The notes under the pieces were generated by a model that had not been told where the DNA came from, made no database searches, and was given only the letters and a program-made list of their open reading frames with translations. Positions 10,154 through 62,302 of a stretch of DNA of 64,000 bases are shown here, piece by piece. The DNA is from a virus. The stretch spans positions 35,794 through 99,793 of the IMG/VR virus record IMGVR_UViG_3300003465_000003; one strand, given 5' to 3'. Position 1 is the stretch's first letter. Every line of letters starts with the position of its first letter. A program made the translations under genes and the position numbers.

Positions 10154-11056
10154 CTAGAATGCGCCCTCTGCAACCTGCAAACACGTCAACCCCAACTCCC
10201 GCCACATCTTGACCACACTATTCCTATCATCAAGAACAAATAGAACATTATAATCATTCCGGACATACTTATCAAACAACTCCTGCTTAACAATATAATC
10301 CTTCCTGAAATCTCCAGTAGGCCGCATCAAAAGTGGGCCACCAACTGGGCACAGATGCTTGGTCAAAAATGCTTCTGTTTGTGCTCTGAACTTATCTTCC
10401 CGTCCAGACAAATAGATGATCTTATACCTACGGTTACACATGGCAGATATAACTTCATATACTGGCAGGTTCAGGTCATCATCTGCGCACTTGGCAGCAT
10501 CATAAGGACTACGTTTTCCATCAAATAATGCCAATGTCCCATCTAGATCGCATATAATTGCCAGTGGTGTTTCCGACTTAGGAACATAATGTTCCACCTT
10601 GGGGATCGCCACATATTTCTCATACATCTCACGGATGACTTTCTCTCCTACACGCTTCCCCTCAGGACGCTTACTATCCCTTTCAATACACGTCTCTAAG
10701 GGGACATGGGTAAAGTCAACCACGCGGAATTCTGCACCATACTTCCTTGCCAAATCACTTAGGCGCTGCTTATGCTTCCCGAAGTTGCAGTCTGAGCAAA
10801 TGACGGATTCACCATGCGCCAACGCTCCCACAATAGCCTTATTACGGATTTCAATAACTTCCTTCTCCGTCTCATGTGACCACTTCCATCCTTGCTTAAC
10901 AAGCTCTGCCCTAATATCATCCTTATTAACAATAACTACCTTTTCTCCACACGCCTTAGCATTGATAACTTCCTGCTCCGCCCACGTAGTCTTACCAGAG
11001 GCCGGGATGCCTCTAGTCATCGTCAACGTCAGCTTCCTCTTCTTCCTCATAGTCAT
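10154..11056 (-). CDS. pseT: Polynucleotide 5'-kinase/3'-phosphatase (T4 PseT-like)
   Basis: RGIPASGKTTWA P-loop kinase fused to a HAD domain: DLDGTLA, SGR, K, DDR. Confidence 0.92.
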   Translation of the reverse strand: MTMRKKRKLTLTMTRGIPASGKTTWAEQEVINAKACGEKVVIVNKDDIRAELVKQGWKWSHETEKEVIEIRNKAIVGALAHGESVICSDCNFGKHKQRLSDLARKYGAEFRVVDFTHVPLETCIERDSKRPEGKRVGEKVIREMYEKYVAIPKVEHYVPKSETPLAIICDLDGTLALFDGKRSPYDAAKCADDDLNLPVYEVISAMCNRRYKIIYLSGREDKFRAQTEAFLTKHLCPVGGPLLMRPTGDFRKDYIVKQELFDKYVRNDYNVLFVLDDRNSVVKMWRELGLTCLQVAEGAF

Positions 11057-15511: not shown

Positions 15512-16474
15512 CTAAACATTGGACTCCCTTTCAAACTGCGCCCGCAATAAGTAATCCTTATACCACTCTGCTACCCCACGTGTAATCTGTCTACTAATAT
15601 GGGGCCACGCATACTTAAACAGTACGTTCTTAATATCTTCCTCACACTCTTTAAGCACGTCCTGCGGGATCTCTCGCACCAATAATCCAATATCCTTCGG
15701 GTGGTCCTCAATTAATCCACGTTCCCGCAGATGCATGAGCGCTTTCTGCCAACGTGCTTGAGTCCCATACGCGTCTCCAAGCTTCTGGATAACATCTTTA
15801 TTGCCTGGATTCGCATCCTTCCACGCGCTGCGATGAACCTCCTTAAACGCTTCACTTACGAACTTCCCGAACAACATCTTCTTGTCTGGTCCATAAAGTG
15901 GTGTCAGAGGCTTAATCACAACCCCTTCGATCTTCTGCCCTCCCAGTACGGACTCAGTATCCAGGAACTTCCTCAGTTCCTCGGCAGAGTTCACAGTCCC
16001 TTGATAGAGCTGAGGCACGACCTCAAGTTCTATACGCTCAGCTTCCGCTACAAGCTGGTCGTAGGGCAGATAGGTTTCCTGATCAGTCAAGATATCGAAG
16101 AGGATGACGTTATCCTTTGGCACGCGGTCATAGGCCAGTGCATTATGCTTTGGTTTCGCTAGCACTTCTCCACGGTATTGCCAGCCTGGTTTCAGCAAAT
16201 GCTGCCTAGCTTTAGCAGCAGCAACAGCAGATCTGAATAGCGCTTCAGGTGCATCTGCTATCATTACCGCACCCTTGCTGCGGACCTTAAGTTCATAGAC
16301 TCCGGGAACTTCCTTGAGCAGCCCACCCTCAGGTTCCAACAATGGGTACAGCCCAAACGCAAAGAAGCTCCCATCAACCTTCTCTTGTACCTGAACAGGG
16401 ACGGTAAACAATTCGCTAACCGCCCTGTGCCCAAGGTTGAAAATTGATTGAGGGCTGCAAAATGTAGTTGACAC
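15512..16474 (-). CDS. ATP-dependent RNA ligase, probably starting at GTG 16474
   Basis: QEKVDGS adenylation motif, RGE, LFDI, VVPQLY.G, EGVVIK, KFVSEAFKE; GGGAGG RBS 6 nt before the in-frame GTG. Confidence 0.85.
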   Translation of the reverse strand: MSTTFCSPQSIFNLGHRAVSELFTVPVQVQEKVDGSFFAFGLYPLLEPEGGLLKEVPGVYELKVRSKGAVMIADAPEALFRSAVAAAKARQHLLKPGWQYRGEVLAKPKHNALAYDRVPKDNVILFDILTDQETYLPYDQLVAEAERIELEVVPQLYQGTVNSAEELRKFLDTESVLGGQKIEGVVIKPLTPLYGPDKKMLFGKFVSEAFKEVHRSAWKDANPGNKDVIQKLGDAYGTQARWQKALMHLRERGLIEDHPKDIGLLVREIPQDVLKECEEDIKNVLFKYAWPHISRQITRGVAEWYKDYLLRAQFERESNV

Positions 16475-16497
16475 AAACCACCTCCCTGTGGTATAAT
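16468..16497 (+). promoter_or_regulatory. Sigma70 promoter of the HNH gene
   Basis: TTGACA-18 nt-TATAAT with extended -10 TG; ATG 8 nt downstream. Confidence 0.8.
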
Positions 16498-16505
16498 GGG
16501 ACATT

Positions 16506-17015
16506 ATGAAAACTAAGTACACTAAAGAACAACTGCAACCAATAATTGCAGACTCTGTATGTTGGAATGATGTATGTAGAAAGCTAAATCTCAGCCCCAA
16601 TGGTGGGAGTATAAAAAGCTTTCTTCGCCGAATAGCTGACCATTTTTCTATATCCTACACTCACTTTTTAGGCAAAAGAAAGAATAAGTTATTGCGCACT
16701 ACAGCAGTCCAAGCTCTTAGATGTAATTCAGGTTATAATCGTTCTACTATACGCAAAATAGTAGTGGAGGACGAACTGCTTCCATACAATTGTATTATAT
16801 GTGGACAACCCCCAATGTGGAATGGCAAGCCATTGACACTAATTCTAGACCACATAAATGGTAACTGTAGAGATCATGAGCTTAAAAACCTAAGGTTTGT
16901 GTGTCCAAATTGCGACACACAGTTACCAACTTATGCAGGTAAAAATTGTAAAGGTATCCCAAAGACGTTAACGACACCCAAGAAACCTAAAAGGGTAAAC
17001 AAATTCCACACGTAA
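16506..17015 (+). mobile_element. Free-standing HNH endonuclease, antisense to the operon
   Basis: CIICG...W.GKPLTLILDHINGNCRDHELKNLRFVCPNC. Confidence 0.88.
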
Positions 17016-17043
17016 TAATCTGTGGAGAATGCCATGAATTCAT
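16987..17043 (-). pseudogene. Orphaned original 5' end of the RNA ligase (MNSWHSPQ...)
   Basis: ATG with AGGA RBS just after the upstream ORF stop; its SPQ matches the SPQ preceding SIFNLGHR on the far side of the HNH. Confidence 0.6.
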
Positions 17044-25308: not shown

Positions 25309-25394
25309 TGGTACTGAGGGCGGGACTCGAACCCGCATGGACCTTAGCCCGACGGTTTTTGAAACCGTTGTGTAAGCCATTCCGCCACCTCAGT
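25309..25394 (-). tRNA. tRNA-Leu(CAA)
   Basis: ACTGAGG/CCTCAGT acceptor stem, ACGGT-TTCAAAA-ACCGT anticodon arm, long variable arm, GGTTCGAGTCC, encoded CCA. Confidence 0.92.
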
Positions 25395-25404
25395 GTTTTT
25401 ACAC

Positions 25405-25433
25405 TTGACTTTTGTGCGTAAAAATGATATAAT
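25405..25433 (+). promoter_or_regulatory. Sigma70 promoter of the HNH gene
   Basis: TTGACT-17 nt-TATAAT with extended -10 TG. Confidence 0.75.
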
Positions 25434-25442
25434 GCAATCATT

Positions 25443-25832
25443 ATGAAAATATATGGCCCCTATAAAGATTCAACTGGCAAACGAAATATTGTTATTCGTT
25501 ACTATCCAGATGGTAAAAGGAAAACTATGTCCAATGCTAGACATTTGATGGAGCTGCATTTGGGCCGAACTTTAGGACTAAACGAGACGGTGGACCATAT
25601 AAATGGCGACCCACTAGACGACAGAATAGACAATTTGCAGGTAATGACATTACAAGATAATATCCGCAAGTCTGCAAAGCCTGCAGAAATTTACTCATTT
25701 TACTGTTCTATGTGTGGGCAGCAAGCAGTTAAACCTATGTGTCAAGTTAAACACAATTGGAAACAGGGGAAGGCCGGCCCTTTTTGCGGCAAGAAATGCG
25801 CTCGTAAGTTCCAGATATTGGGTGGTTCCTAG
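25443..25832 (+). mobile_element. Free-standing HNH endonuclease next to tRNA-Leu
   Basis: ARHLMELHLGR.L...ETVDHINGDPLDDRIDNLQVM, plus a C-terminal Cys cluster. Confidence 0.88.
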
Positions 25833-26319
25833 CTGTGTCTGCCGTTCCACCACTTCCCGTTCCGTGGCACCAACAGCGCCTACCGCATCTATTGCACTTG
25901 ACGTGTATCTTTCCCATGCAGTAATCACAGTCCCCGCCAAGACGTATGACCCGACCTGTACTTGAGCGGGCAATATTATTTTTGACAACCATACAGTTAG
26001 GCTCTAAATGGGCTGCGAATTACAGGCCATTCGTCAGGAGTATCATTACCATGAATGATACTTGATACATACCAATTAGGTGGATTAATATTTTTCTTGC
26101 CGATATTCCCAATAACAATATGTTCGCCACCATATGTTTGCAATATGCCGACCTTCAAGTCACCGCAACAAATGGAGTCTACTGCGGACATATACGTACG
26201 ATTAAGTGCATGGGTAGCCACAGGCAAATCTGGGGCTGCCAATAGAATCTTAGCTAATTCGTGTGAAGTCATAGTAGTTACCGCCCAGCCACTACCCGAA
26301 CCATTCCTCTCCTGTAATT

Positions 26320-52570: not shown

Positions 52571-52599
52571 TTGACATTTAGGTTTTTTTATGTTATAGT
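52571..52599 (+). promoter_or_regulatory. Sigma70 promoter ahead of the packaging genes
   Basis: TTGACA-17 nt-TATAGT with TG extension; inverted repeat TTACTTAC-aaaaa-GTAAGTGA just downstream. Confidence 0.75.
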
Positions 52600-53158
52600 G
52601 CGCCAGTTACTTACAAAAAGTAAGTGACCCCACCGGGTAAAAAATATTTCTGCGTACAATATTGTACACTACAATCTCTATGGGGGTCGCAGGGGTGGTA
52701 CCCTGTTTTGGATAAGGTAGCGTCATAGCTACTGGCCCCCACCAATCTTTAACTCCGCCAGTTGGGGCCTGCGTTAGTGCGCCACGTCCGGCAAGAAAAT
52801 GGACCCCCGCCATACCCTTTCAGAAAATACCTCAGAAAATGATCGCAGAAAAAATGAGCTGCGTCTATTCTTTCAAATCCAATTAGAACGTATTCGGTAC
52901 AAACCTGCTGCGCATGCGTCAGGCAGCAAGAAGCCTAATCTTACGCAGCAGGATTTCGGGAAAGGTAAGTAATGAATATAAACCATGTTATCGAGAATGC
53001 GATACGTCAACACAACTGTCCACAGCATTACTTTGGGCATAGGTGGAACCCGCACTTCGAGATATTCTGTCATCATTGTGGAATTGGGCTCACTATAACC
53101 CCGGATATAAAGAGACATATAGAAATGTGCTATATCCTAGTGCCGAGGGGCAAACACA

Positions 53159-53491
53159 ATGGGTAAGGACCTATTCCCCAAAAGTCGTGAAGCCCGCGAA
53201 CTGTTAGTCAGTAAGGCGCAGGAGCTTATTGAGCGTTACATGGAAGTTTCCAAGAAGGCAGAGGATGCCGGAGATTGGAAGACTGCTATAGAGTCCCTGC
53301 AGTGGCTCATAAGCCGCTTGCCTAGTGACGCTACTGGCGTTCGCGTAATGGACCCTCACGTAGACAAACAGATAGTGCAGGAACGTCCATCTGGTCCGCA
53401 GGTAAACATTGGCATCCAGTTAGGTGGTATAAACAGCAAACAGAAGAAGCTGCCAGCCCCTATCGTTACATCAGAGCCAGTCAATGACTAG
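53159..53491 (+). CDS. Probable terminase small subunit
   Basis: 110-aa helical protein (GDWKTA...WLISR) just upstream of TerL. Confidence 0.55.
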   Translation: MGKDLFPKSREARELLVSKAQELIERYMEVSKKAEDAGDWKTAIESLQWLISRLPSDATGVRVMDPHVDKQIVQERPSGPQVNIGIQLGGINSKQKKLPAPIVTSEPVND

Positions 53492-53590: not shown

Positions 53591-55042
53591 ATGCCCCAAG
53601 CTGAAATAATAGTAGCCCTGCCAGATGGCACGCCATATACCCTTTATAAGCCGTGGCCCAAGCAGTTAGAATTCCACGAGAACAATACACCCAACTTACT
53701 AGCTTACGGCAACCGGGGTGGTGGTAAGAGTCTTATGTTGCGCATGGACGCGCATATGCGGGCTATGTCGGTGCCCGGGATCAACCTGATCCTCGTTAGG
53801 CGTACGTACCCTGAATTATTGCGCTCTCACCTAATCCACATCAAACGCGAGATGAAACTGCTAGGTGGGGATTACCACGCCACAGACCACATTGCCAGCT
53901 ACCCTAATGGTTCCAAACTATTCTTCTCCCACGTGGCGAATGAAGCAGACGCGCTGAACCTGCTGTCAGCAGAATTCCTTGCAGCTTACTTCGACGAGTT
54001 ATCCACAATCCCGTGGGACTTCTTTGTAAAGCTTTGCGCCTCTGTCCGCGTGACCAAGGGCCGTGAGAACGAGGGATTAATCGCCTCTGTCAGAGCAGCT
54101 ACCAACCCTCTTGGGCCATCTGCCGGAGAAATCTTCAGTTACTTCGTCAATAAAGACGTGGACCCGGAAGAGGACCCGGATTATACCCCAAGTGATTGGG
54201 ATGCTATCAAGATCCAGATGACTGATAACCCCGCGCTGGATATTGAGCAGTATAAGAAGAAATTCGCTGGCATGCCTGATTATTTGAAGAAGGCATGGTT
54301 GGAAGGTGAATTCGCATTAGAAAACCAGCTATTCAACTTCAAACCTAAGAAGGACGGTAACGAGTATCACGTTATTTCATCCCTGCCGATGATTGGCAAC
54401 CGATGCATGCTGGAAGGTGGATTTGGAGAACCTTGGCGTCAGCACGAATCTGTGCAGATTTATCGTGGCTTTGACCTTGGTTTCAGCCCCGACCCGGCAT
54501 ATTGCGTATGGGTGGCACACATTGGGAACCGTTATATAGCGTTCAAAGAGAAGTATTGGTATGAGACAGTAGCTTCAGACATTGCTAAAGACATTATAGA
54601 AGAGTCTAATGGCATGCGCGTTTCCGCTACGTATTGTGACCCAGTTATGGATATAAAGACTGCAGCAGACGTACGCACAATCAAGGACATCTTCGAGGAC
54701 AACGGTGTTCCAATGGACAGCAGCGTTAACAACAGAGAGCATTATGCGCACGCCGTCCATACAGCGTTAGCAGAAGAGGCAGCAGAAGGTGTCCCGCGTC
54801 TACAAATCTTGCAGAAGTGCGGGCCAGAGCTTGGGTGCCCCTACTTAATAAAAACGATCCCGCAACAGCGTTACGATCCAAAACACCCATTACGTATGGC
54901 CGACAATAAAAACGACCATGGCGTAATCGCTCTTGCATATTTCTTAATAAGTTCTGGTGCTATGGAGCATCGTGGCCCAGCAACACAGCGCTTGCCAAAA
55001 TGGATGCGCCCAAAACCGGTAAAGAATAGTTTTGATTTCTAA
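53591..55042 (+). CDS. terL: Terminase large subunit
   Basis: PWPKQLEFH, YGNRGGGKS, AYFDELST, ATNPLG, DNPAL, WLEGEF, GFDLGFSPDP, NDHGVIALAY. Confidence 0.92.
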   Translation: MPQAEIIVALPDGTPYTLYKPWPKQLEFHENNTPNLLAYGNRGGGKSLMLRMDAHMRAMSVPGINLILVRRTYPELLRSHLIHIKREMKLLGGDYHATDHIASYPNGSKLFFSHVANEADALNLLSAEFLAAYFDELSTIPWDFFVKLCASVRVTKGRENEGLIASVRAATNPLGPSAGEIFSYFVNKDVDPEEDPDYTPSDWDAIKIQMTDNPALDIEQYKKKFAGMPDYLKKAWLEGEFALENQLFNFKPKKDGNEYHVISSLPMIGNRCMLEGGFGEPWRQHESVQIYRGFDLGFSPDPAYCVWVAHIGNRYIAFKEKYWYETVASDIAKDIIEESNGMRVSATYCDPVMDIKTAADVRTIKDIFEDNGVPMDSSVNNREHYAHAVHTALAEEAAEGVPRLQILQKCGPELGCPYLIKTIPQQRYDPKHPLRMADNKNDHGVIALAYFLISSGAMEHRGPATQRLPKWMRPKPVKNSFDF

Positions 55043-55047
55043 GGTAA

Positions 55048-57093
55048 ATGATAATGCATGAAACAGGATTAGAGCCTACACCCATGGTTGCAGAACTTGA
55101 GGGGAACGAAGAGGCAACCACAGGTCCCAAGACGAAAAAGCGTTGGGCGGAATTCAGGCAGCAATTAGACGTTTGCAAGAACTATCGCAAAAAGTTAGTT
55201 CGTAACTGGTCTACCAATATTGATTACCGCAGAGGGAAAACCTTCGCTTCGCAGTCAGATGACGATACTATTTCAGTCAATATGGACTGGAGTCTGACTA
55301 AGACCAAACAGGCAGCGTTATTCTCACAGGTCCCCCACGTGGCGGTATCGCATCCGCCGGAGTCTGTAGCTGCCGGAGAATGGTTAAGCAAGTTCACGCG
55401 CAAGCTGAATGATATGCTTGTTAAGGGTGGTATAGAAGCGGCCATGGACGAGATTATGCCTGACTGCATAAATGCGGCAGGCGTAGGTGTTGTGCTCATA
55501 AGCTATGAAGCCCTAACTGAGGATAAGGAAGTCCCGGCTATCGACATTTCCATTCTGCCCCCGCAATTGCAGGCAGAAGTGATGAAGACAGGCATGATCT
55601 TTGGCAAGCCAATGCCGATGAAGACTGTGCCACATCCGGTCAGTAAGCGTTACACTATCCGCCGTATATCTCCATCAGATTTCTTATGGCCTGTAGATTT
55701 TACAGGCTCAGACTTCGATAATGCCCCATGGCTCGGTTACACGGGCCGTATAACATGGGCGGAAGCAGTTAGGCGTTTTAATCTCCCAGAAGAGGAGAAG
55801 CACCTATATCTGAGCGATGAGACAACTGTAGAAGACCGTTTGTCTCACGACTGGGACCGGGAAAGGGCAGCTTATGACAATAGGCTTGGCTACGACGAAC
55901 TTTTCTACTGGGAGCATCAGTACGACTCTGAAGCAAAGTCCTATGACGCGCTTCATCACTTGGTATTTATCCATGGCAAAACAGAACCTGTAATTGACGA
56001 ACCATGGAAGGGTCAACTTATTGAAGAGTCAGGCAAAGTTATTGGCGCTTTGAAGAGTCCTGTCAGAGTACTAACACTAGACTATATTAGTGACGAGAAT
56101 ATTCCACCATCCGCTAGCGCTATCGGTAGGTCACAGGTCAACGAACTGAATAAGGGTCGCACGCAGATTATCCGTCAGCGCGAAAGAAATATTCCGTATG
56201 ACTGGTATGATGTCAATAGGCTGGACCCAACAATTCAGCAGGCCATCATGCGTGGGACTTGGCTGCATGCTATTCCGGTACAGGGGGATGGGTCTCGTGT
56301 AATCGGGCAAGTACAGAAGTCAAACATCTCACAAGAGAATTTCACATTCAATGAGATCGCTAAACAGGATCTGCACGAGATGTGGACTACTGGGCCTAAC
56401 CAGGTTGGAGTCGGCGGTGATGTTGAGACCAAAGGTGAAGCTAGCATCATCGAGACAAACTTCACTGCTAAGATCGGACGCGAGCGAGCAAAGGTTGCGT
56501 CGTTCGTCGTTGGCATAGCACAGGTTGTAGGCGGATTATTGTGTCTTTACGAAGACCCGGCAGAGTTTGGTGAAGGCTTCGATCCAGAGTTCTCGCAGAA
56601 TCTTAGTTACAGCATATTGGCGGATTCTACCGTTCTGGTCGACGCTAATCAGCGCCTGCGTAGACTTAACGATTACTTGAACAAATACGCTAAGTCTGGT
56701 TATGTAAATATTGAACCAGTACTGCGTGAGATCACTATGTTGATAGGGCTTGATCCAGACGCAGTAGTCGCTGCACCCAAACCGCAGCCACCAGAGCAAC
56801 CAAATATTAGTCTACGGCTAACTAGCGAGAAGGACATGATGAACCCGCTGATGCTGGCGTTCTTGATTAAGTCTGGTCAGGCACCAGATCCTAAGTTGAT
56901 CGAACAGGCTAAGACGCTTATTCAGCAATCAGTGGTAGAACCGATTCCGCCCGACGCAGCACAAGGCGCGGTAGGGCCAATGCCACCCACCCCGCCTATA
57001 AAGACGGGAGAGGATAACCCGCAGGCAACAGTATTGCCGTCAATTGCTAAACGAAGCGATGCGCCAGAGGAGCCAGGCAGTGAAATGCAGTAA
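55048..57093 (+). CDS. Portal protein
   Basis: 681 aa directly after TerL; RISPSDFLWP; Pro/Gln-rich C-terminus. Confidence 0.75.
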   Translation: MIMHETGLEPTPMVAELEGNEEATTGPKTKKRWAEFRQQLDVCKNYRKKLVRNWSTNIDYRRGKTFASQSDDDTISVNMDWSLTKTKQAALFSQVPHVAVSHPPESVAAGEWLSKFTRKLNDMLVKGGIEAAMDEIMPDCINAAGVGVVLISYEALTEDKEVPAIDISILPPQLQAEVMKTGMIFGKPMPMKTVPHPVSKRYTIRRISPSDFLWPVDFTGSDFDNAPWLGYTGRITWAEAVRRFNLPEEEKHLYLSDETTVEDRLSHDWDRERAAYDNRLGYDELFYWEHQYDSEAKSYDALHHLVFIHGKTEPVIDEPWKGQLIEESGKVIGALKSPVRVLTLDYISDENIPPSASAIGRSQVNELNKGRTQIIRQRERNIPYDWYDVNRLDPTIQQAIMRGTWLHAIPVQGDGSRVIGQVQKSNISQENFTFNEIAKQDLHEMWTTGPNQVGVGGDVETKGEASIIETNFTAKIGRERAKVASFVVGIAQVVGGLLCLYEDPAEFGEGFDPEFSQNLSYSILADSTVLVDANQRLRRLNDYLNKYAKSGYVNIEPVLREITMLIGLDPDAVVAAPKPQPPEQPNISLRLTSEKDMMNPLMLAFLIKSGQAPDPKLIEQAKTLIQQSVVEPIPPDAAQGAVGPMPPTPPIKTGEDNPQATVLPSIAKRSDAPEEPGSEMQ

Positions 57094-57172
57094 TTGTGAT
57101 AAAGAGTCAAGCTTACAGCGGAGATACCTTGTTGATATTCCGGTGATAATCACAATGTTCGCAAGTGCATGA
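57080..57172 (+). pseudogene. Orphaned original 5' end (MKCSNCDKE...) of the 57642-57920 gene
   Basis: GAGGAG RBS plus GTG overlapping the portal end; CSNCDKE aligns with CSKCQQK beyond the HNH. Confidence 0.55.
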
Positions 57173-57640
57173 ACGCCGATTGTTAGCTTGTTCCAACGGT
57201 GTTGCCCATCTGCAATTAGTTTTAGTGTAATGACCATTCACGTCTATTCTGTCAAGAGTTGTCCCAGCGGGGCGTTCTCCCATGTCGGTTAAAAAGTTGT
57301 CAAAACTTTCCCATTCCGCGCAGTAGGTTATTCCACGGTCGTTCCATCCTCTCTTATTTTTACAGCGGTGCTTCATAGCAATCCATGACCGATAAGTAGG
57401 TGTTCCATAACGACCGTGTTTAGTTAACGTCTTATTTCTTTTACGCAACGTTTCTTTCAGAAGGCAACCACAACTTTTGATTAATCCCTTTCGCAGATGT
57501 GTTCCAGATACAATTTTCATCTTGCCGCAAGAGCATTGGCATTCCCACATAACTTTTCTGCCTTGGCGCTTCGGCGAGGCGTTCAAAACGGTTAATTTTC
57601 CGAAGGTTTGACCTTGAATATTTTTGGTGTTTGAGTGCAT
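57113..57640 (-). mobile_element. Free-standing HNH endonuclease, antisense within the structural operon
   Basis: [35 protein letters not shown]...[10 protein letters not shown]...NCRWAT; promoter TTGACA(57677)-17 nt-TATTAT, then ATG 57640. Confidence 0.9.
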
Positions 57641-57641
57641 A

Positions 57642-57920
57642 ATGGAAGATAATAGCATAGTTTGCTCAAAATGTCAACAGAAAATTTTCATTTCTAGCTG
57701 GCCCTTCTGTCCGCACGGTAAGGGCAGTAACAACGTCATCGCGGATGAGATACCCGGCGGCGTATGGATACGGCATGGCATCTGCAACGAAGACGGAACC
57801 CCACGCAAGTATTACTCTAAGTCAGAGATGGCTAAGGAGGCAGCAAAGCGGGGATTGATTAACAATGCTAGTGGCAAAGCAGATGCCAAGCCCAATGTCA
57901 AAAGGGCCTATTCCACGTAA
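57642..57920 (+). CDS. Small Zn-ribbon-like protein
   Basis: CSKC...WPFCPHG...DEIPGG; lies between portal and scaffold. Confidence 0.6.
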
Positions 57921-58259
57921 ATGAATAAAGAGGATCTGATTAGAGAAGTAAGTGCATTATTACAAATCAGATTGCATCGACAGTTATACCAGTCTAAAGG
58001 TTCTAAAATTATAGATGCAATATTTGATGTAATCGCGGAGGCCCTACAGCGGGAGGAAAAGGTAGTAATACCTGGGTTTGGAACATTCATGGTTACAGAG
58101 TATCCAGCTAGATGGCGCGGTAGTTATGTATTCAATGGACCGGCCAAGGGTCACGTAGACCATAGGCATTGCGCTGCGTATAAGCGCGTAGTATTTAGGC
58201 CCTGTGTAGGATTAAAGAAGTTCATTTCAGAAGGGGTAGAAGATGAGTCACGGTCATAA
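57921..58259 (+). CDS. HU/IHF-family DNA-bending protein
   Basis: MNKEDLI...IIDAIFDVIAEALQREEKVVIPGFGTF...VVFRP...LK. Confidence 0.88.
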   Translation: MNKEDLIREVSALLQIRLHRQLYQSKGSKIIDAIFDVIAEALQREEKVVIPGFGTFMVTEYPARWRGSYVFNGPAKGHVDHRHCAAYKRVVFRPCVGLKKFISEGVEDESRS

Positions 58260-58916
58260 GCATAAGTGTCAGTGTGAGCATGAGAACCTGAAATATTGTA
58301 AGTCGTGCAGACACCCGTATTGTATGGATTGCGGGGAAGAGTGGGGGACTAACAGCTGGTATAAGTGGTATTATCAACCGTATTATACACAGACAGTGGG
58401 CGGTGTGCAACCAGCGACGACCGCTATCGGTACTACCCAGAACTGGCAAACACTTCTATCCAAGACTGAGGAAGATAAGGATGAGGGACACAAATGCAGA
58501 TAAACTCGCCAGAAATCTATAAGGAGTTAAAGGAATACGAGTTCGTTTTCAGCTCTGGCGTAAGCCTGCCCTTTATGATGGATGAGACTGCAGGGGATAC
58601 CTTGCAGGAAGAAGGGGAATACCTGGTAGTAAATCTTGTTGAGAAACCTAGTCGCACAAACCCGGATCTGAAGACCTCCCCGGAGCGTGTAAAGATTTAC
58701 AAGTCTCAGCTAGCTGCCGTGTACGAGAGGGTGCATAAGCTGCGGGAGCCGAGCCCCGAAGAGAAGTTCAACATGGTCAAGACCCTGCACAAAGCTACAG
58801 GAACCGTCAATTAAGCCCTAGGATGCCCTAGGAGCGCTTTTCTCGACGGGGTAAGGGTTAGGTATACCCCTTCCCCAGAAAACCTCTCAGAACGGCTCTA
58901 ATAGCTTTTAAAGACC

Positions 58917-60553: not shown

Positions 60554-60629
60554 GCCGAGGTAGCTCAGTGCTAGAGCGCGTGGTTTTATGCCGCGAGGTC
60601 GGGCGGTTCGATTCCCTCTCTCGGCTCCA
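60554..60629 (+). tRNA. Atypical tRNA with UUUUAUG anticodon loop (nominal UUA)
   Basis: Full cloverleaf GCCGAGG/TCTCGGC, GCTC/GAGC, CGTGG/CCGCG, TCCA end; D-loop lacks GG and T stem is bulged. Confidence 0.65.
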
Positions 60630-60733: not shown

Positions 60734-61678
60734 GTGGCATTAACAATCGAACAGATTGCTGCCGTTTCCTATCCCGCAGTCTTGGCTGAAATGCGAAAGC
60801 CAGCCAACCAGTGGGTAGAGAACGCAGCGCTTCGAGTTCTAGAGAAGGGCGGCTTTATTGAGCGCAAGTCTCTAGGTGAAAACATCGAAGTACCTCTTGA
60901 TTACCGGGCAAACCCGGATACAGCAATTCTGGCAGCCGACCAGGACACAGCCAGCTTGCTGAAGACAGAAGTCATCACGTCAGCCGTATACGACATCGCG
61001 CAGCTCAACGTTCCAGTAACCTGGACCAAGGGCGACGATGCCAAGAACCCAAGCGAGACTCAGAAGATTGCCCTTGTAAAGGCACTTTTGGAGAACGCAA
61101 TCAACTCACATGACGACCTGATTGAGCAGCGGATTTTCACATCCAGCACAGTCGGTGGTGTAGAGTTGCTGGGCTTGAACGACCTTGTTCCAACATCTGG
61201 ACAGGGCACGGTTGGCGGAATCGACTCAGCCGTAGAGACATTCTGGCGTAACAAGGCAGATACTTACACCGACGGCTCTGACATCGAGGCAGCAATGACT
61301 GACCTCTATAATCAGTGCGCTAAGGGTTCTGGTTCGGCCTTGCTACCAAAGGTTCTAATCAGCGGTTCAACTCCACACGCATTGTATGAGTCAACACTTC
61401 AGGCTCTGCAGCGCTATTCTGGTTCTTCAGAAGCAGATGGCGGCTTCAAGACATTGAAGTTCAAGGGCTCAGACTATGTGTTCAGTCAGTTTGGCGGCGA
61501 TAAGATTTACTTCTTGAATCCCAAGAACTACAAGCTTATCGTATCCCAGCAGTACTTCCGTGATAAGGGCTCCACGTTCGACGTACCAGGTCAGAACGCT
61601 TTCTACTTTTTAATCTATTCTGCTTTACAGTTCGTGGTTAATAACAAATCACGACTTGGTGTGCTGAATATAGCATAA
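60734..61678 (+). CDS. Major capsid protein
   Basis: 314 aa after the scaffold; ELLGLNDLV, GTVGGID....FWRN, GFKTLKFKG, IYFLN patterns. Confidence 0.85.
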   Translation: MALTIEQIAAVSYPAVLAEMRKPANQWVENAALRVLEKGGFIERKSLGENIEVPLDYRANPDTAILAADQDTASLLKTEVITSAVYDIAQLNVPVTWTKGDDAKNPSETQKIALVKALLENAINSHDDLIEQRIFTSSTVGGVELLGLNDLVPTSGQGTVGGIDSAVETFWRNKADTYTDGSDIEAAMTDLYNQCAKGSGSALLPKVLISGSTPHALYESTLQALQRYSGSSEADGGFKTLKFKGSDYVFSQFGGDKIYFLNPKNYKLIVSQQYFRDKGSTFDVPGQNAFYFLIYSALQFVVNNKSRLGVLNIA

Positions 61679-61703: not shown

Positions 61704-61732
61704 TTGACAAAATAGTGAGGTTGTGATAGCAT
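61704..61732 (+). promoter_or_regulatory. Sigma70 promoter of the HNH gene
   Basis: TTGACA-17 nt-TAGCAT with TG extension. Confidence 0.7.
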
Positions 61733-61741
61733 GACCTCATT

Positions 61742-62230
61742 ATGAAAACTTGTTCTAAGTGCGGATTAGACAAAGAGCCATCTGACTTTTATAAGGGGAT
61801 GGCTAAATGTAAGGAATGTCATAAGCGTGTTACCAGAGATTGGCAATTACGTAGCAAAGAAAAGGTTGCGGAAATTGCTAGGAATTGGTACCACAGGACA
61901 CCTGAGAATAGACAGTATTCTATAGACAAGGCTAGAAACTGGCAACGTAACAACTCGGATAATGATAAAGACCGTAAGTTTCGTTATAATATGCAACGGC
62001 TTTACGGATTATCTTATGAGCGTTATCGTGAGATGGCCGAGTTCCAAAACGGAGTCTGCGCTATTTGCGGATTGCCACCTTACCGGAATCTTGACATAGA
62101 CCACTGTCATTCGACTGGAAAGATACGCGGGTTGTTATGCGCGCCTTGCAATACTGTGTTGGGACTTCTAAAAGAAAACCCAACAACAGCGGAGAAGGTG
62201 GCGGAATACTTGCGTAAACATAATGCGTAG
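61742..62230 (+). mobile_element. Endonuclease VII-family homing endonuclease
   Basis: MKTCSKC...CKEC, QNGVCAIC, IDHCHSTGKIRGLLCAPCN..LG. Confidence 0.9.
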
Positions 62231-62302
62231 CAGGCGGCAGGTTGGATCTTTGGAGTCTCATAAGCTCCATTAATTGAGTTCGATTCTCAAGCGTTGCTAC
62301 CA
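62229..62302 (+). tRNA. Degenerate tRNA(CAT)-like element
   Basis: TGGAGT-CTCATAA-GCTCCA anticodon arm, TTGAG-TTCGATT-CTCAA T arm, ACCA end; poor D arm; overlaps the HNH stop codon. Confidence 0.6.

Follow-up and report, generated by a model that had tools for sequence, protein, structure and literature searches.

In the DNA analysed here (hereafter the window, a stretch of 64,000 nucleotides from the virus record IMGVR_UViG_3300003465_000003), the gene that follows the portal gene appears to begin twice: once at the portal stop codon and once more beyond an HNH endonuclease gene that lies between the two beginnings on the opposite strand. The preliminary description saw in this a single gene that is interrupted by the nuclease gene and then resumes, and it proposed that joining at the RNA level be considered. 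Which of the two beginnings belongs to a working gene, and what the other one represents, is the question that this locus raises. The elements on which that description was built, i.e., an SD sequence followed by GTG 57080, the antisense HNH gene, the restart codon ATG 57642 and a minus-strand promoter, are all real by direct reading and in the ORF list. The locus comprises the following features:

55048..57093, plus strand: portal gene, stop TAA at 57091-93 (direct reading and ORF list)
57079..57106, plus strand: probable leftover of a former zinc-ribbon 5' end (PSSM rank, frameshift-aware alignment, position)
57113..57640, minus strand: HNH gene, 175 aa, ATG 57640-38, stop 57115-13, match to phrog_374 at 2e-59
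57641..57677, minus strand: predicted HNH promoter and near-leaderless start, i.e., -35, -10, 8 nt ending in CATT, then ATG, with no SD
57642..57920, plus strand: complete zinc-ribbon gene, 92 aa, aligned with its homologues from residue 1

The junction between the portal and zinc-ribbon genes

The ORF that begins at ATG 57642, one base from the ATG of the HNH gene, encodes a protein whose first 14 residues are followed by WPFCPHG. Its 72 homologues (89-154 aa) align with it from residue 1, and the first zinc knuckle (CxxC...C-P-H) lies whole within the ORF, as it does in the homologues, which carry one knuckle at the N-terminus and not two. Judged against this family, the zinc-ribbon gene at 57642 is intact, of full length and not split, contrary to the earlier view that it resumes a gene begun upstream. 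A protein joined across the insert would carry an extra knuckle that is absent from the homologues; thus, the two CxxC motifs appear to be a redundant duplicate and not halves of one N-terminus. The weak ribosome binding site ascribed to the restart ATG was confirmed, since only GAGTG is found upstream of it, with clear SD boxes present at most neighbouring genes. The protein has no significant match in Pfam, PHROG, PDB (sequence search) or Foldseek, and for the latter its AlphaFold model (pLDDT 71) retrieved nothing at E <= 0.001.

The order terL-portal-zinc-ribbon is conserved across 104 related loci wherever the contig extends far enough, and tblastn places the window portal at 34-65% identity to its counterparts in about 100 of them. 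In most of these loci the zinc-ribbon start has the form M-x(1-8)-CxxC, shares 1 or 4 nt with the portal stop and lies behind an SD in the portal tail. Insert-free relatives therefore agree with the earlier proposal that the family normally starts at the portal stop. The window retains this SD (GAGGAG, 57067-72) in its last portal codons, where in relatives it serves the following zinc-ribbon gene. The sister phage, whose portal (P0195) is 86% identical to that of the window over residues 380-681 and whose zinc-ribbon protein is 76% identical, shows no comparably similar HNH on its contig of 95.5 kb, and an HNH match between the portal and zinc-ribbon genes was found in none of the 104 related loci. 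Only one probable second instance was found, P0012 together with P0074, each on a single 1162-bp JGI contig, presumably the same. Other nucleases occupy the same junction in relatives, i.e., an Endonuclease_7 gene (1e-18) in L023 and L024 and a phrog_5046 nuclease in L044 and L013, and these sit cleanly between the portal and zinc-ribbon genes without a leftover. Among relatives, nucleases thus land at this junction. Farther afield, the INPHARED phage collection gave neither a DNA nor a protein match, and a scan of GTDB genomes gave a single distant match in a Tepidisphaeraceae MAG, which offered no clue to the host.

The match of the HNH protein to phrog_374 ('HNH endonuclease') starts at its MHSN start, a start shared by P0074 (65% identical), one of 2466 homologues. 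Eight further nuclease PHROGs were matched, seven of them HNH, with no match in Pfam or in a sequence search of the PDB. As described earlier, this HNH is of a different family from the two other HNH genes of the genome (BLASTP E > 10; different PHROG families). The gene runs antisense to the structural operon, its GC content is 0.434 vs. 0.49 in the flanks, and its close IMG/VR relatives lie at three distant loci, none of which adjoins portal or zinc-ribbon genes. The proposed dual-coding arrangement of promoter and N-terminus also holds: the -35 box TTGACA (57677-72) coincides with codons 11-12 (TGT CAA) of the zinc-ribbon gene read on the other strand, and the -10 box TATTAT (57654-49) lies within its D-N-S codons (3-5), with a 17-nt spacer that contains the TG of an extended -10. 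This predicted promoter matches 11 of 12 consensus bases in addition to the TG, and sites as good number only 5 in the 99.8-kb genome, vs. 1.8 expected from shuffles. Promoter and ORF together form a cassette of about 565 bp (57113-57677). The protein belongs to the HNH nuclease family, and the gene occurs sporadically at a conserved site and lies outside any intron or intein; it is best read as a free-standing, mobile-type homing-endonuclease gene, with homing itself predicted. The cassette flanks were searched for direct and inverted repeats, and a transposon-like target duplication was rejected because only short chance pairs were present.

The short reading frame at the portal stop

The frame that starts at GTG 57080, 7 nt after the GAGGAG box, reads MKCSNCDKE, with its CxxC at 57086-57097, and forms a 30-aa mini-ORF that remains open as far as 57172, across the 3' end of the HNH gene and antisense to it; the family-like stretch breaks off 6-9 nt before the HNH stop codon. 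When all start-preceded 7-mers in the six frames of the genome (n=46,373) were ranked against a profile (PSSM) of family N-termini, the seven-residue Cys-knuckle of the mini-ORF came second, behind the working zinc-ribbon gene itself, with other CxxC 7-mers of the genome nearly equal (12.6 vs. 12.8). In a frameshift-aware (DP) alignment with family N-termini, the stretch scored 28-39, equal to the working copy (z about 4.8). Considered as a possible duplicate of the target end on the other side of the HNH gene, the stretch at 57079-57106 is a short family-like 5' end whose DNA is not significantly similar to that of the working copy (score reached by 187 of 2000 shuffles), and the case for a leftover consists of about nine codons and their position.

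The unshifted GTG frame fits several family members best, scoring 39, 34 and 30 against members other than the sister, and is unlike the sister's leader. A doubly frameshifted reading fits the sister peptide with a score of 28, vs. 26 unshifted: the stretch 57079-57103 gives S-E in frame a, N-A-V-I in frame c and C-D-K in frame b, and sister residues 2-10 are S-E-N-V-I-T-C-D-K, so that in this register 6 of 9 sister residues are matched by the leftover and 4 of 9 by the working copy. The frameshifted reading also accounts for the differing portal tails, EEPG+SEMQ in the window vs. EEPG+V, followed by M-S-E, in the sister. On these comparisons, the mini-ORF is most likely the leftover of a displaced zinc-ribbon start that can be read in two registers. 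As to which copy is native, the sister protein shares its 7-residue leader and C-Q-Q with the working copy, and the sister apparently lacks the HNH gene; thus, the working N-terminus may be native and not imported.

Recurrence of the cassette design and rival explanations

A search for -35 and -10 boxes followed by 6-10 nt and an ATG that opens an ORF of 60 aa or more returned exactly four occurrences in the genome, all of them nuclease genes with '...CATT ATG', in line with the earlier claim that the same layout recurs with unrelated nucleases. With an ORF threshold of 80 aa, the pattern was absent from 516 kb of related loci. Besides the cassette described above, the occurrences are:

16468..17043, plus strand: promoter, 8 nt, ATG and HNH gene 16506-17015, antisense to an RNA ligase gene
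25405..25859, plus strand: same promoter design, HNH gene 25443-25832, antisense to tRNA-Leu (25309-25394)
61704..62230, plus strand: promoter, 9 nt, ATG and endonuclease VII-like gene, in sense orientation, ending inside tRNA-Met

Common to these four unrelated, GC-poor nuclease genes is therefore a promoter followed by 8-9 nt and an ATG, a leaderless design that points to a common expression constraint. Three of the four cassettes are antisense and have a possible 5' leftover of the target beyond the nuclease gene, on its far side; no leftover was found for the sense cassette at 61704..62230. At tRNA-Leu, a leftover of the 5' half abuts the HNH stop, with 18 of 23 nt equal to tRNA positions 3-26, a modest score that was reached by 41 of 2000 shuffles. 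At the RNA ligase gene, which when read from its new GTG covers its PHROG profile from position 32, a short minus-strand ORF lies beyond the HNH stop, and the putative leftover consists of a three-residue repeat only, with no DNA similarity to the working ligase start. A supported 5' leftover next to the nuclease stop is thus present in the zinc-ribbon and tRNA-Leu cassettes, and only a short repeat at the ligase.

Had the HNH insert split the zinc-ribbon gene, its halves would have to be reunited in the RNA or the protein, with an intron, trans-splicing, bypassing or a split intein as the means. Such a history would explain why a CxxC motif lies on each side of the insert and why both a start codon and a good SD survive at the mini-ORF when the SD of the downstream ATG is weak. 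However, the family N-terminus is already whole downstream, Rfam, with its group I intron families, gave no match at E <= 1 over 56500-58300, and Pfam, including its intein/Hint families, gave nothing significant on the HNH or zinc-ribbon ORF. The empty Rfam search leads us to reject intron models, and a group I intron with an endonuclease ORF is further contradicted by the full N-terminus in the downstream 'exon' and by the antisense orientation of the insert, owing to which the HNH gene is not a conventional intron ORF. For a bypass of 535 nt we know of no precedent. Since the gene is complete and neither a ribozyme nor an intein was found, the RNA-level joining that had been suggested is neither needed nor indicated, which makes a split gene very improbable. 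It would be harder still to believe that the HNH protein is a packaging accessory nuclease acting with terminase and portal, as in some cos phages, and is not mobile. The gene does adjoin the terL and portal genes, and Kala et al. (2014, cited in PMC9611059) reportedly found that HNH proteins next to terminase genes are part of some packaging machines. However, it is no conserved, co-oriented neighbour of terminase and portal across the phage group: not one of the 104 related loci has it at this junction, the sister phage apparently lacks it too, it is GC-poor and antisense to the operon with a consensus promoter of its own, other nuclease families occupy its place in relatives, and the same cassette design recurs at the RNA ligase gene and two tRNA genes.

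A more serious alternative, albeit an unlikely one, is that the mini-ORF arose by chance, i.e., that the HNH cassette was inserted into the short portal/zinc-ribbon junction and displaced nothing, the CxxC being a coincidence in DNA of the portal tail. The brevity of the stretch (about nine codons), its non-significant DNA likeness to the working copy, the near-equal scores of other CxxC 7-mers, the variability of portal tails and the clean position of the relatives' nucleases all agree with this. Against it, a motif ranked in the top two of 46,373 falls inside the interval of about 40 nt where the family start belongs, for which the chance is about 1e-3, and the better-supported tRNA-Leu leftover likewise abuts a nuclease stop, the ligase cassette adding only its three-residue repeat. 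Distinct from chance, and a sub-variant of the preferred explanation rather than a contradiction of it, is the possibility that the leftover is a frameshifted native 5' end of the sister type, with the CxxC of the GTG frame half coincidental. The HNH gene would then have been inserted at 57103, behind the C-D-K codons and within the first knuckle, and a small deletion would have removed the old start codon and the portal stop, so that the portal ORF ran on for four codons. The sister-like residues and the two portal tails speak for this course of events, which nonetheless requires two 1-nt deletions and one of roughly 5 nt and competes with an unshifted frame that scores better against other members and keeps its SD, start codon and open frame. 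We consider this variant quite possible, at somewhat less than even odds.

Proposed origin and nearest parallels

The explanation that we favour, with a probability of roughly two in three, is that a compact HNH homing cassette lies head to head with a recoded or imported zinc-ribbon 5' end, and that 57079-57106 is the dead leftover of the earlier one. In the phage group, the zinc-ribbon gene stands directly after the portal gene and is translationally coupled to it. In the window, its first 12 or so codons, in which the -35 and -10 boxes of the HNH gene are also encoded, would have been recoded or imported. From these boxes, a promoter of host type, early transcription would yield a leaderless or near-leaderless mRNA for the nuclease. 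The predicted cut falls within or next to the codons of the first Cys-knuckle, in HNH-free alleles that co-infecting relatives carry, and the cassette would then be copied in through break repair. From the arrangement of the locus we infer the insertion boundaries, the target and cleavage site and a one-sided repair, homologous on the side of the gene body and illegitimate on that of the variable portal tail, so that the recipient's 5' end up to the break would be left behind. The resident allele would be immune because its site is split and recoded. Late rightward terL-portal transcription would then read through the antisense cassette, with the zinc-ribbon gene expressed from its weak SD.

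The reading of a split gene is thereby corrected and replaced by a testable one of a displaced start. If the layout of leftover and recoded start holds, it would show by what arrangement the start of an essential-module gene can take in a selfish nuclease and the gene survive, and it would offer a sequence-only route to inferring nuclease cut sites. For annotation, it warns that a short ORF with an SD in front, when it lies beside a nuclease gene, can be a fossil of the adjacent gene. More tentatively, and with the odds clearly against it, these cassettes might represent a distinct mode of parasitism, in which minimal cassettes, made up of only a consensus promoter, a leaderless ATG and an ORF, enter genes and tRNAs at their 5' ends in head-to-head orientation, the native end persists as a fossil and a recoded 5' end, brought in or evolved, houses the promoter, restores the target and would thereby confer immunity. 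If general, such a mode would mean that fossils mark cleavage sites and that homing sites can be read directly from genomes.

To our knowledge, neither a leftover target 5' end nor a promoter inside target codons is known for the seg and mob genes of phage T4, and the literature searched contains no phage report of 5' leftovers beside nuclease genes. The cassette resembles seg/mob in that an HNH-type nuclease gene lies between or next to conserved genes, occurs sporadically and presumably spread by breakage and co-conversion, and also in that tRNA regions are targeted, as by SegB in a tRNA cluster (PMC2988022, PMC2330249). One-sided illegitimate break repair does occur in T4 intron homing (PMC2988022). 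The T4 genes differ in being co-oriented for the most part and in their frequent translational coupling to the gene upstream (PMC2988022). A nuclease gene in the territory of a conserved gene whose function is kept is likewise found with Aeh1 mobE in nrdA, a genes-in-pieces RNR reportedly described by Friedrich et al. (2007, cited in PMC8351571), and in the 'fractured genes' with split inteins (PMC2677866). In those systems neither piece suffices by itself, and the two come together again as subunits or through trans-splicing, whereas here the downstream ORF is complete alone and the upstream piece amounts to about nine codons with no intein.

The closest precedent, by analogy, is the replacement of gene ends by mobile endonuclease ORFs (mORFs) in fungal mitochondria, which bring a foreign gene end with them, the native end persisting as a remnant, as in Allomyces atp6 and in Glomus atp6, atp9, cox2 and nad3 (PMC3630166). 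In the fungi, and putatively here, an endonuclease gene travels with a piece of its target gene that replaces the resident end, the displaced end persists as a diverged, unused duplicate, and several genes per genome are affected. The fungal mORFs replace the 3' end (C-terminus), and their endonuclease gene shares the strand of the target, with which it is often in frame and co-transcribed, whereas in the phage the 5' end is concerned, the nuclease gene is antisense and has a promoter of its own embedded among the replacement codons, one of the targets is a tRNA, and it is the native copy that has to be inferred. If the leftover and the recoded start are what they appear to be, this locus would constitute a phage 5'-end counterpart of gene-end replacement in fungal mitochondria.

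Gene order and completeness of the zinc-ribbon gene

The window covers bases 35794-99793 of its source record, an IMG/VR virus of 99,793 bp rated complete, and has the following features around the end of the portal gene:

53591-55042, plus strand: terminase large subunit gene, terL (Pfam Terminase_3, Terminase_6N)
55048-57093, plus strand: portal gene, 681 aa (homology to portals of related loci)
57067-57072, plus strand: Shine-Dalgarno (SD) sequence GAGGAG, followed by 7 nt and the GTG of a mini-ORF at 57080
57640 (ATG) to 57115-57113 (stop), minus strand: HNH ORF, 175 aa (PHROG 374)
57677-57672 and 57654-57649, minus strand: HNH promoter, TTGACA, 17 nt with TG, TATTAT
57642-57920, plus strand: zinc-ribbon gene, 92 aa
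57921-58259, plus strand: HU-like gene
beyond the HU-like gene, plus strand: further head genes, among them that of the major head protein (60734-61678)
61704-62230, plus strand: endonuclease VII-like gene in sense orientation, with the same consensus promoter, 9 nt and ATG

ARAGORN also calls a tRNA at 60554-60629 (plus strand), flanked by a head-module ORF and the gene of the major head protein; the TTA anticodon of this tRNA would read UAA as a suppressor.

The preliminary description named the mini-ORF, the antisense HNH gene, the restart ATG and the promoter, every one of which is present where it was placed, and read them as one gene interrupted by the HNH gene and resuming beyond it, possibly through RNA-level joining. 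This last reading is not borne out. The ORF that starts at 57642, one base past the HNH ATG, encodes a protein that aligns at full length with 72 homologues of 89-154 aa, and it wholly contains the first zinc knuckle (CxxC, then W-P-F-C-P-H), placed as in the relatives, whose proteins begin M-x(1-8)-C-x-x-C. Joining the mini-ORF on would add a second knuckle, which is absent from every homologue. Rfam gave no match over 56500-58300 (E ≤ 1), and Pfam gave no significant match, inteins included, on either the HNH or the zinc-ribbon ORF. Judged from these comparisons, the zinc-ribbon gene is not split, and joining at the RNA or protein level is neither needed nor indicated. Its first 35 residues (57642-57746) are 60% identical to the zinc-ribbon protein of a sister phage (P0002) and the remaining residues 82% by hand count, a difference consistent with a conversion tract or with more rapid change beside the cassette, with the caveat that N-termini are variable throughout the family.

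The HNH protein matches PHROG 374 ('HNH endonuclease', 2e-59) from its first residues on, and its closest homologue (65% identity) has the same kind of N-terminal beginning. Its promoter, which has an extended -10, agrees with the consensus at 11 of 12 bases, and sites of this quality number only 5 genome-wide, against 1.8 expected from shuffles. As proposed earlier, the -35 box coincides with the zinc-ribbon Cys11-Gln12 codon pair and the -10 box lies within codons 3-5; from there, 8 bases ending in CATT lead to the HNH ATG without an SD sequence. The sole other TG-extended promoter-like site with 11 of 12 consensus bases (52571-52600, plus strand) precedes terL and a small ORF that starts at 53159, and a fifth 11/12 site, without TG, occupies minus-strand position 10275.

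A probable remnant at the portal end

The mini-ORF reads MKCSNCDKE, stays open as far as 57172 and sits where the start of the zinc-ribbon family belongs. When a profile built from 27 family N-termini was used to rank all 46,373 start-preceded 7-mers in six frames of the whole genome, its 7-residue knuckle came second, behind the working zinc-ribbon gene. In frameshift-aware protein-to-DNA alignment against family N-termini, the region scores 28-39, equal to the working copy (z ~4.8); about four distinct sites are this good genome-wide, and a match of this kind would fall by chance into the 40 nt from the conserved portal tail to the HNH stop with a probability of ~1e-3. Position, profile rank, alignment scores and this low chance together indicate that the mini-ORF is probably a leftover of the former 5' end of the zinc-ribbon gene.

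Two registers compete for this putative leftover. The unshifted GTG frame is the best fit to several family members. Read with two single-base deletions, the stretch gives S-E, N-A-V-I and C-D-K, compared with S-E-N-V-I-T-C-D-K at sister residues 2-10, and this register would also explain the portal ends (EEPG+SEMQ in the window versus EEPG+V in the sister). At the DNA level the leftover bears no significant likeness to the working 5' end, so the duplicate would be old or of different origin.

The junction in related phages

The order terL-portal-zinc-ribbon is kept in all of the 104 related loci (IMG/VR and metagenomes) with sufficient contig reach. The zinc-ribbon proteins of the relatives begin M-x(1-8)-CxxC, and in most loci their start codon shares 1 nt (TAATG or TGATG) or 4 nt with the end of the portal gene, the SD sequence being encoded by the final portal codons. 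None of the 104 has an HNH match between the two genes, and the proteins listed for the 95.5-kb contig of the sister phage include no comparably similar HNH; this phage is known from proteins only (identities of 86% for the portal and 76% for the zinc-ribbon protein). The junction is nevertheless a recurrent nuclease landing site:

L023 3489-3998, also L024, sense: Endonuclease_7 gene (1e-18)
L044 2775-3278 and L013 3523-3876, sense: PHROG 5046 nuclease

These four nucleases are translationally coupled, their start and stop codons overlapping those of their neighbours, and have no leftover beside them. By eye, the N-terminus of the PHROG 5046 nuclease is LAGLIDADG-like. In some relatives a further small CxxC zinc-ribbon ORF, which resembles the family's long-form N-terminus, follows the portal gene and precedes the zinc-ribbon gene (L049 3400-3585, preceded by a DUF1353 gene, and L095 2030-2329). 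In L006, L012, L016 and L017 the terL match is broken between query residues 274 and 282 by 200-660 nt of extra DNA, pointing to an insert (intein, intron or nuclease) at a single site of terL; the terL of the window is uninterrupted.

A recurrent cassette design and its parallels

A -35 and a -10 box followed by 6-10 nt, an ATG and an ORF of 60 aa or more are found together at exactly four places in the 99.8 kb, and with a threshold of 80 aa at none in the 516 kb of related loci. Each of the four ORFs encodes a nuclease, unrelated in sequence to the others and of a different PHROG family (10822, 14913, 374 and the endonuclease VII-like 2914), with GC contents of 0.38-0.43 against 0.49 for the genome; pairwise comparison of the HNH gene with the two further HNH genes shows no similarity. 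At window positions 16468 (RNA ligase), 25405 (tRNA-Leu), 57677 and 61704 (tRNA-Met), they share an extended -10, 8-9 nt ending in CATT, ATG and no SD, a layout found in no other gene of the genome and suggestive of leaderless or 3-nt-leader mRNAs, while their promoter spacers differ. Three of the four are antisense to their neighbours.

At 1-9 nt from the nuclease stop, the HNH gene at the portal and the tRNA-Leu cassette each have a probable remnant of the 5' end of the gene they abut, that of tRNA-Leu covering tRNA positions 3-26 (18/23 nt identical, a score reached by 41/2000 shuffles). At the RNA ligase cassette, a short ORF has three residues in common with the working start and no DNA similarity, a weak indication of a 5' leftover. 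The endonuclease VII-like gene overlaps tRNA-Met (62227-62298) by 4 nt at its 3' end and has no tRNA leftover upstream. Given the fourfold recurrence and the probable leftovers here and at tRNA-Leu, the 'same architecture' with an unrelated endonuclease, as earlier proposed, is real. The observation is confirmed and its interpretation partly supported.

The best-supported reading of the sequence is a free-standing homing endonuclease cassette abutting a complete target gene. The present 5' end of the zinc-ribbon gene, which houses the cassette's promoter, would have been recoded or imported along with the cassette. Cleavage would fall close to the first knuckle codons, the resident allele would be immune, and the HNH gene would be expressed early and leaderless, the zinc-ribbon gene late by read-through, from a weak SD. 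Break repair may have been homologous on the side of the conserved gene body and illegitimate on that of the variable portal tail, one possible route to a leftover on one side only; such a combination is known from T4 intron homing (PMC2988022). The outcome would mirror that of fungal mitochondrial endonuclease ORFs, which bring a foreign gene end while the native end stays behind (PMC3630166).
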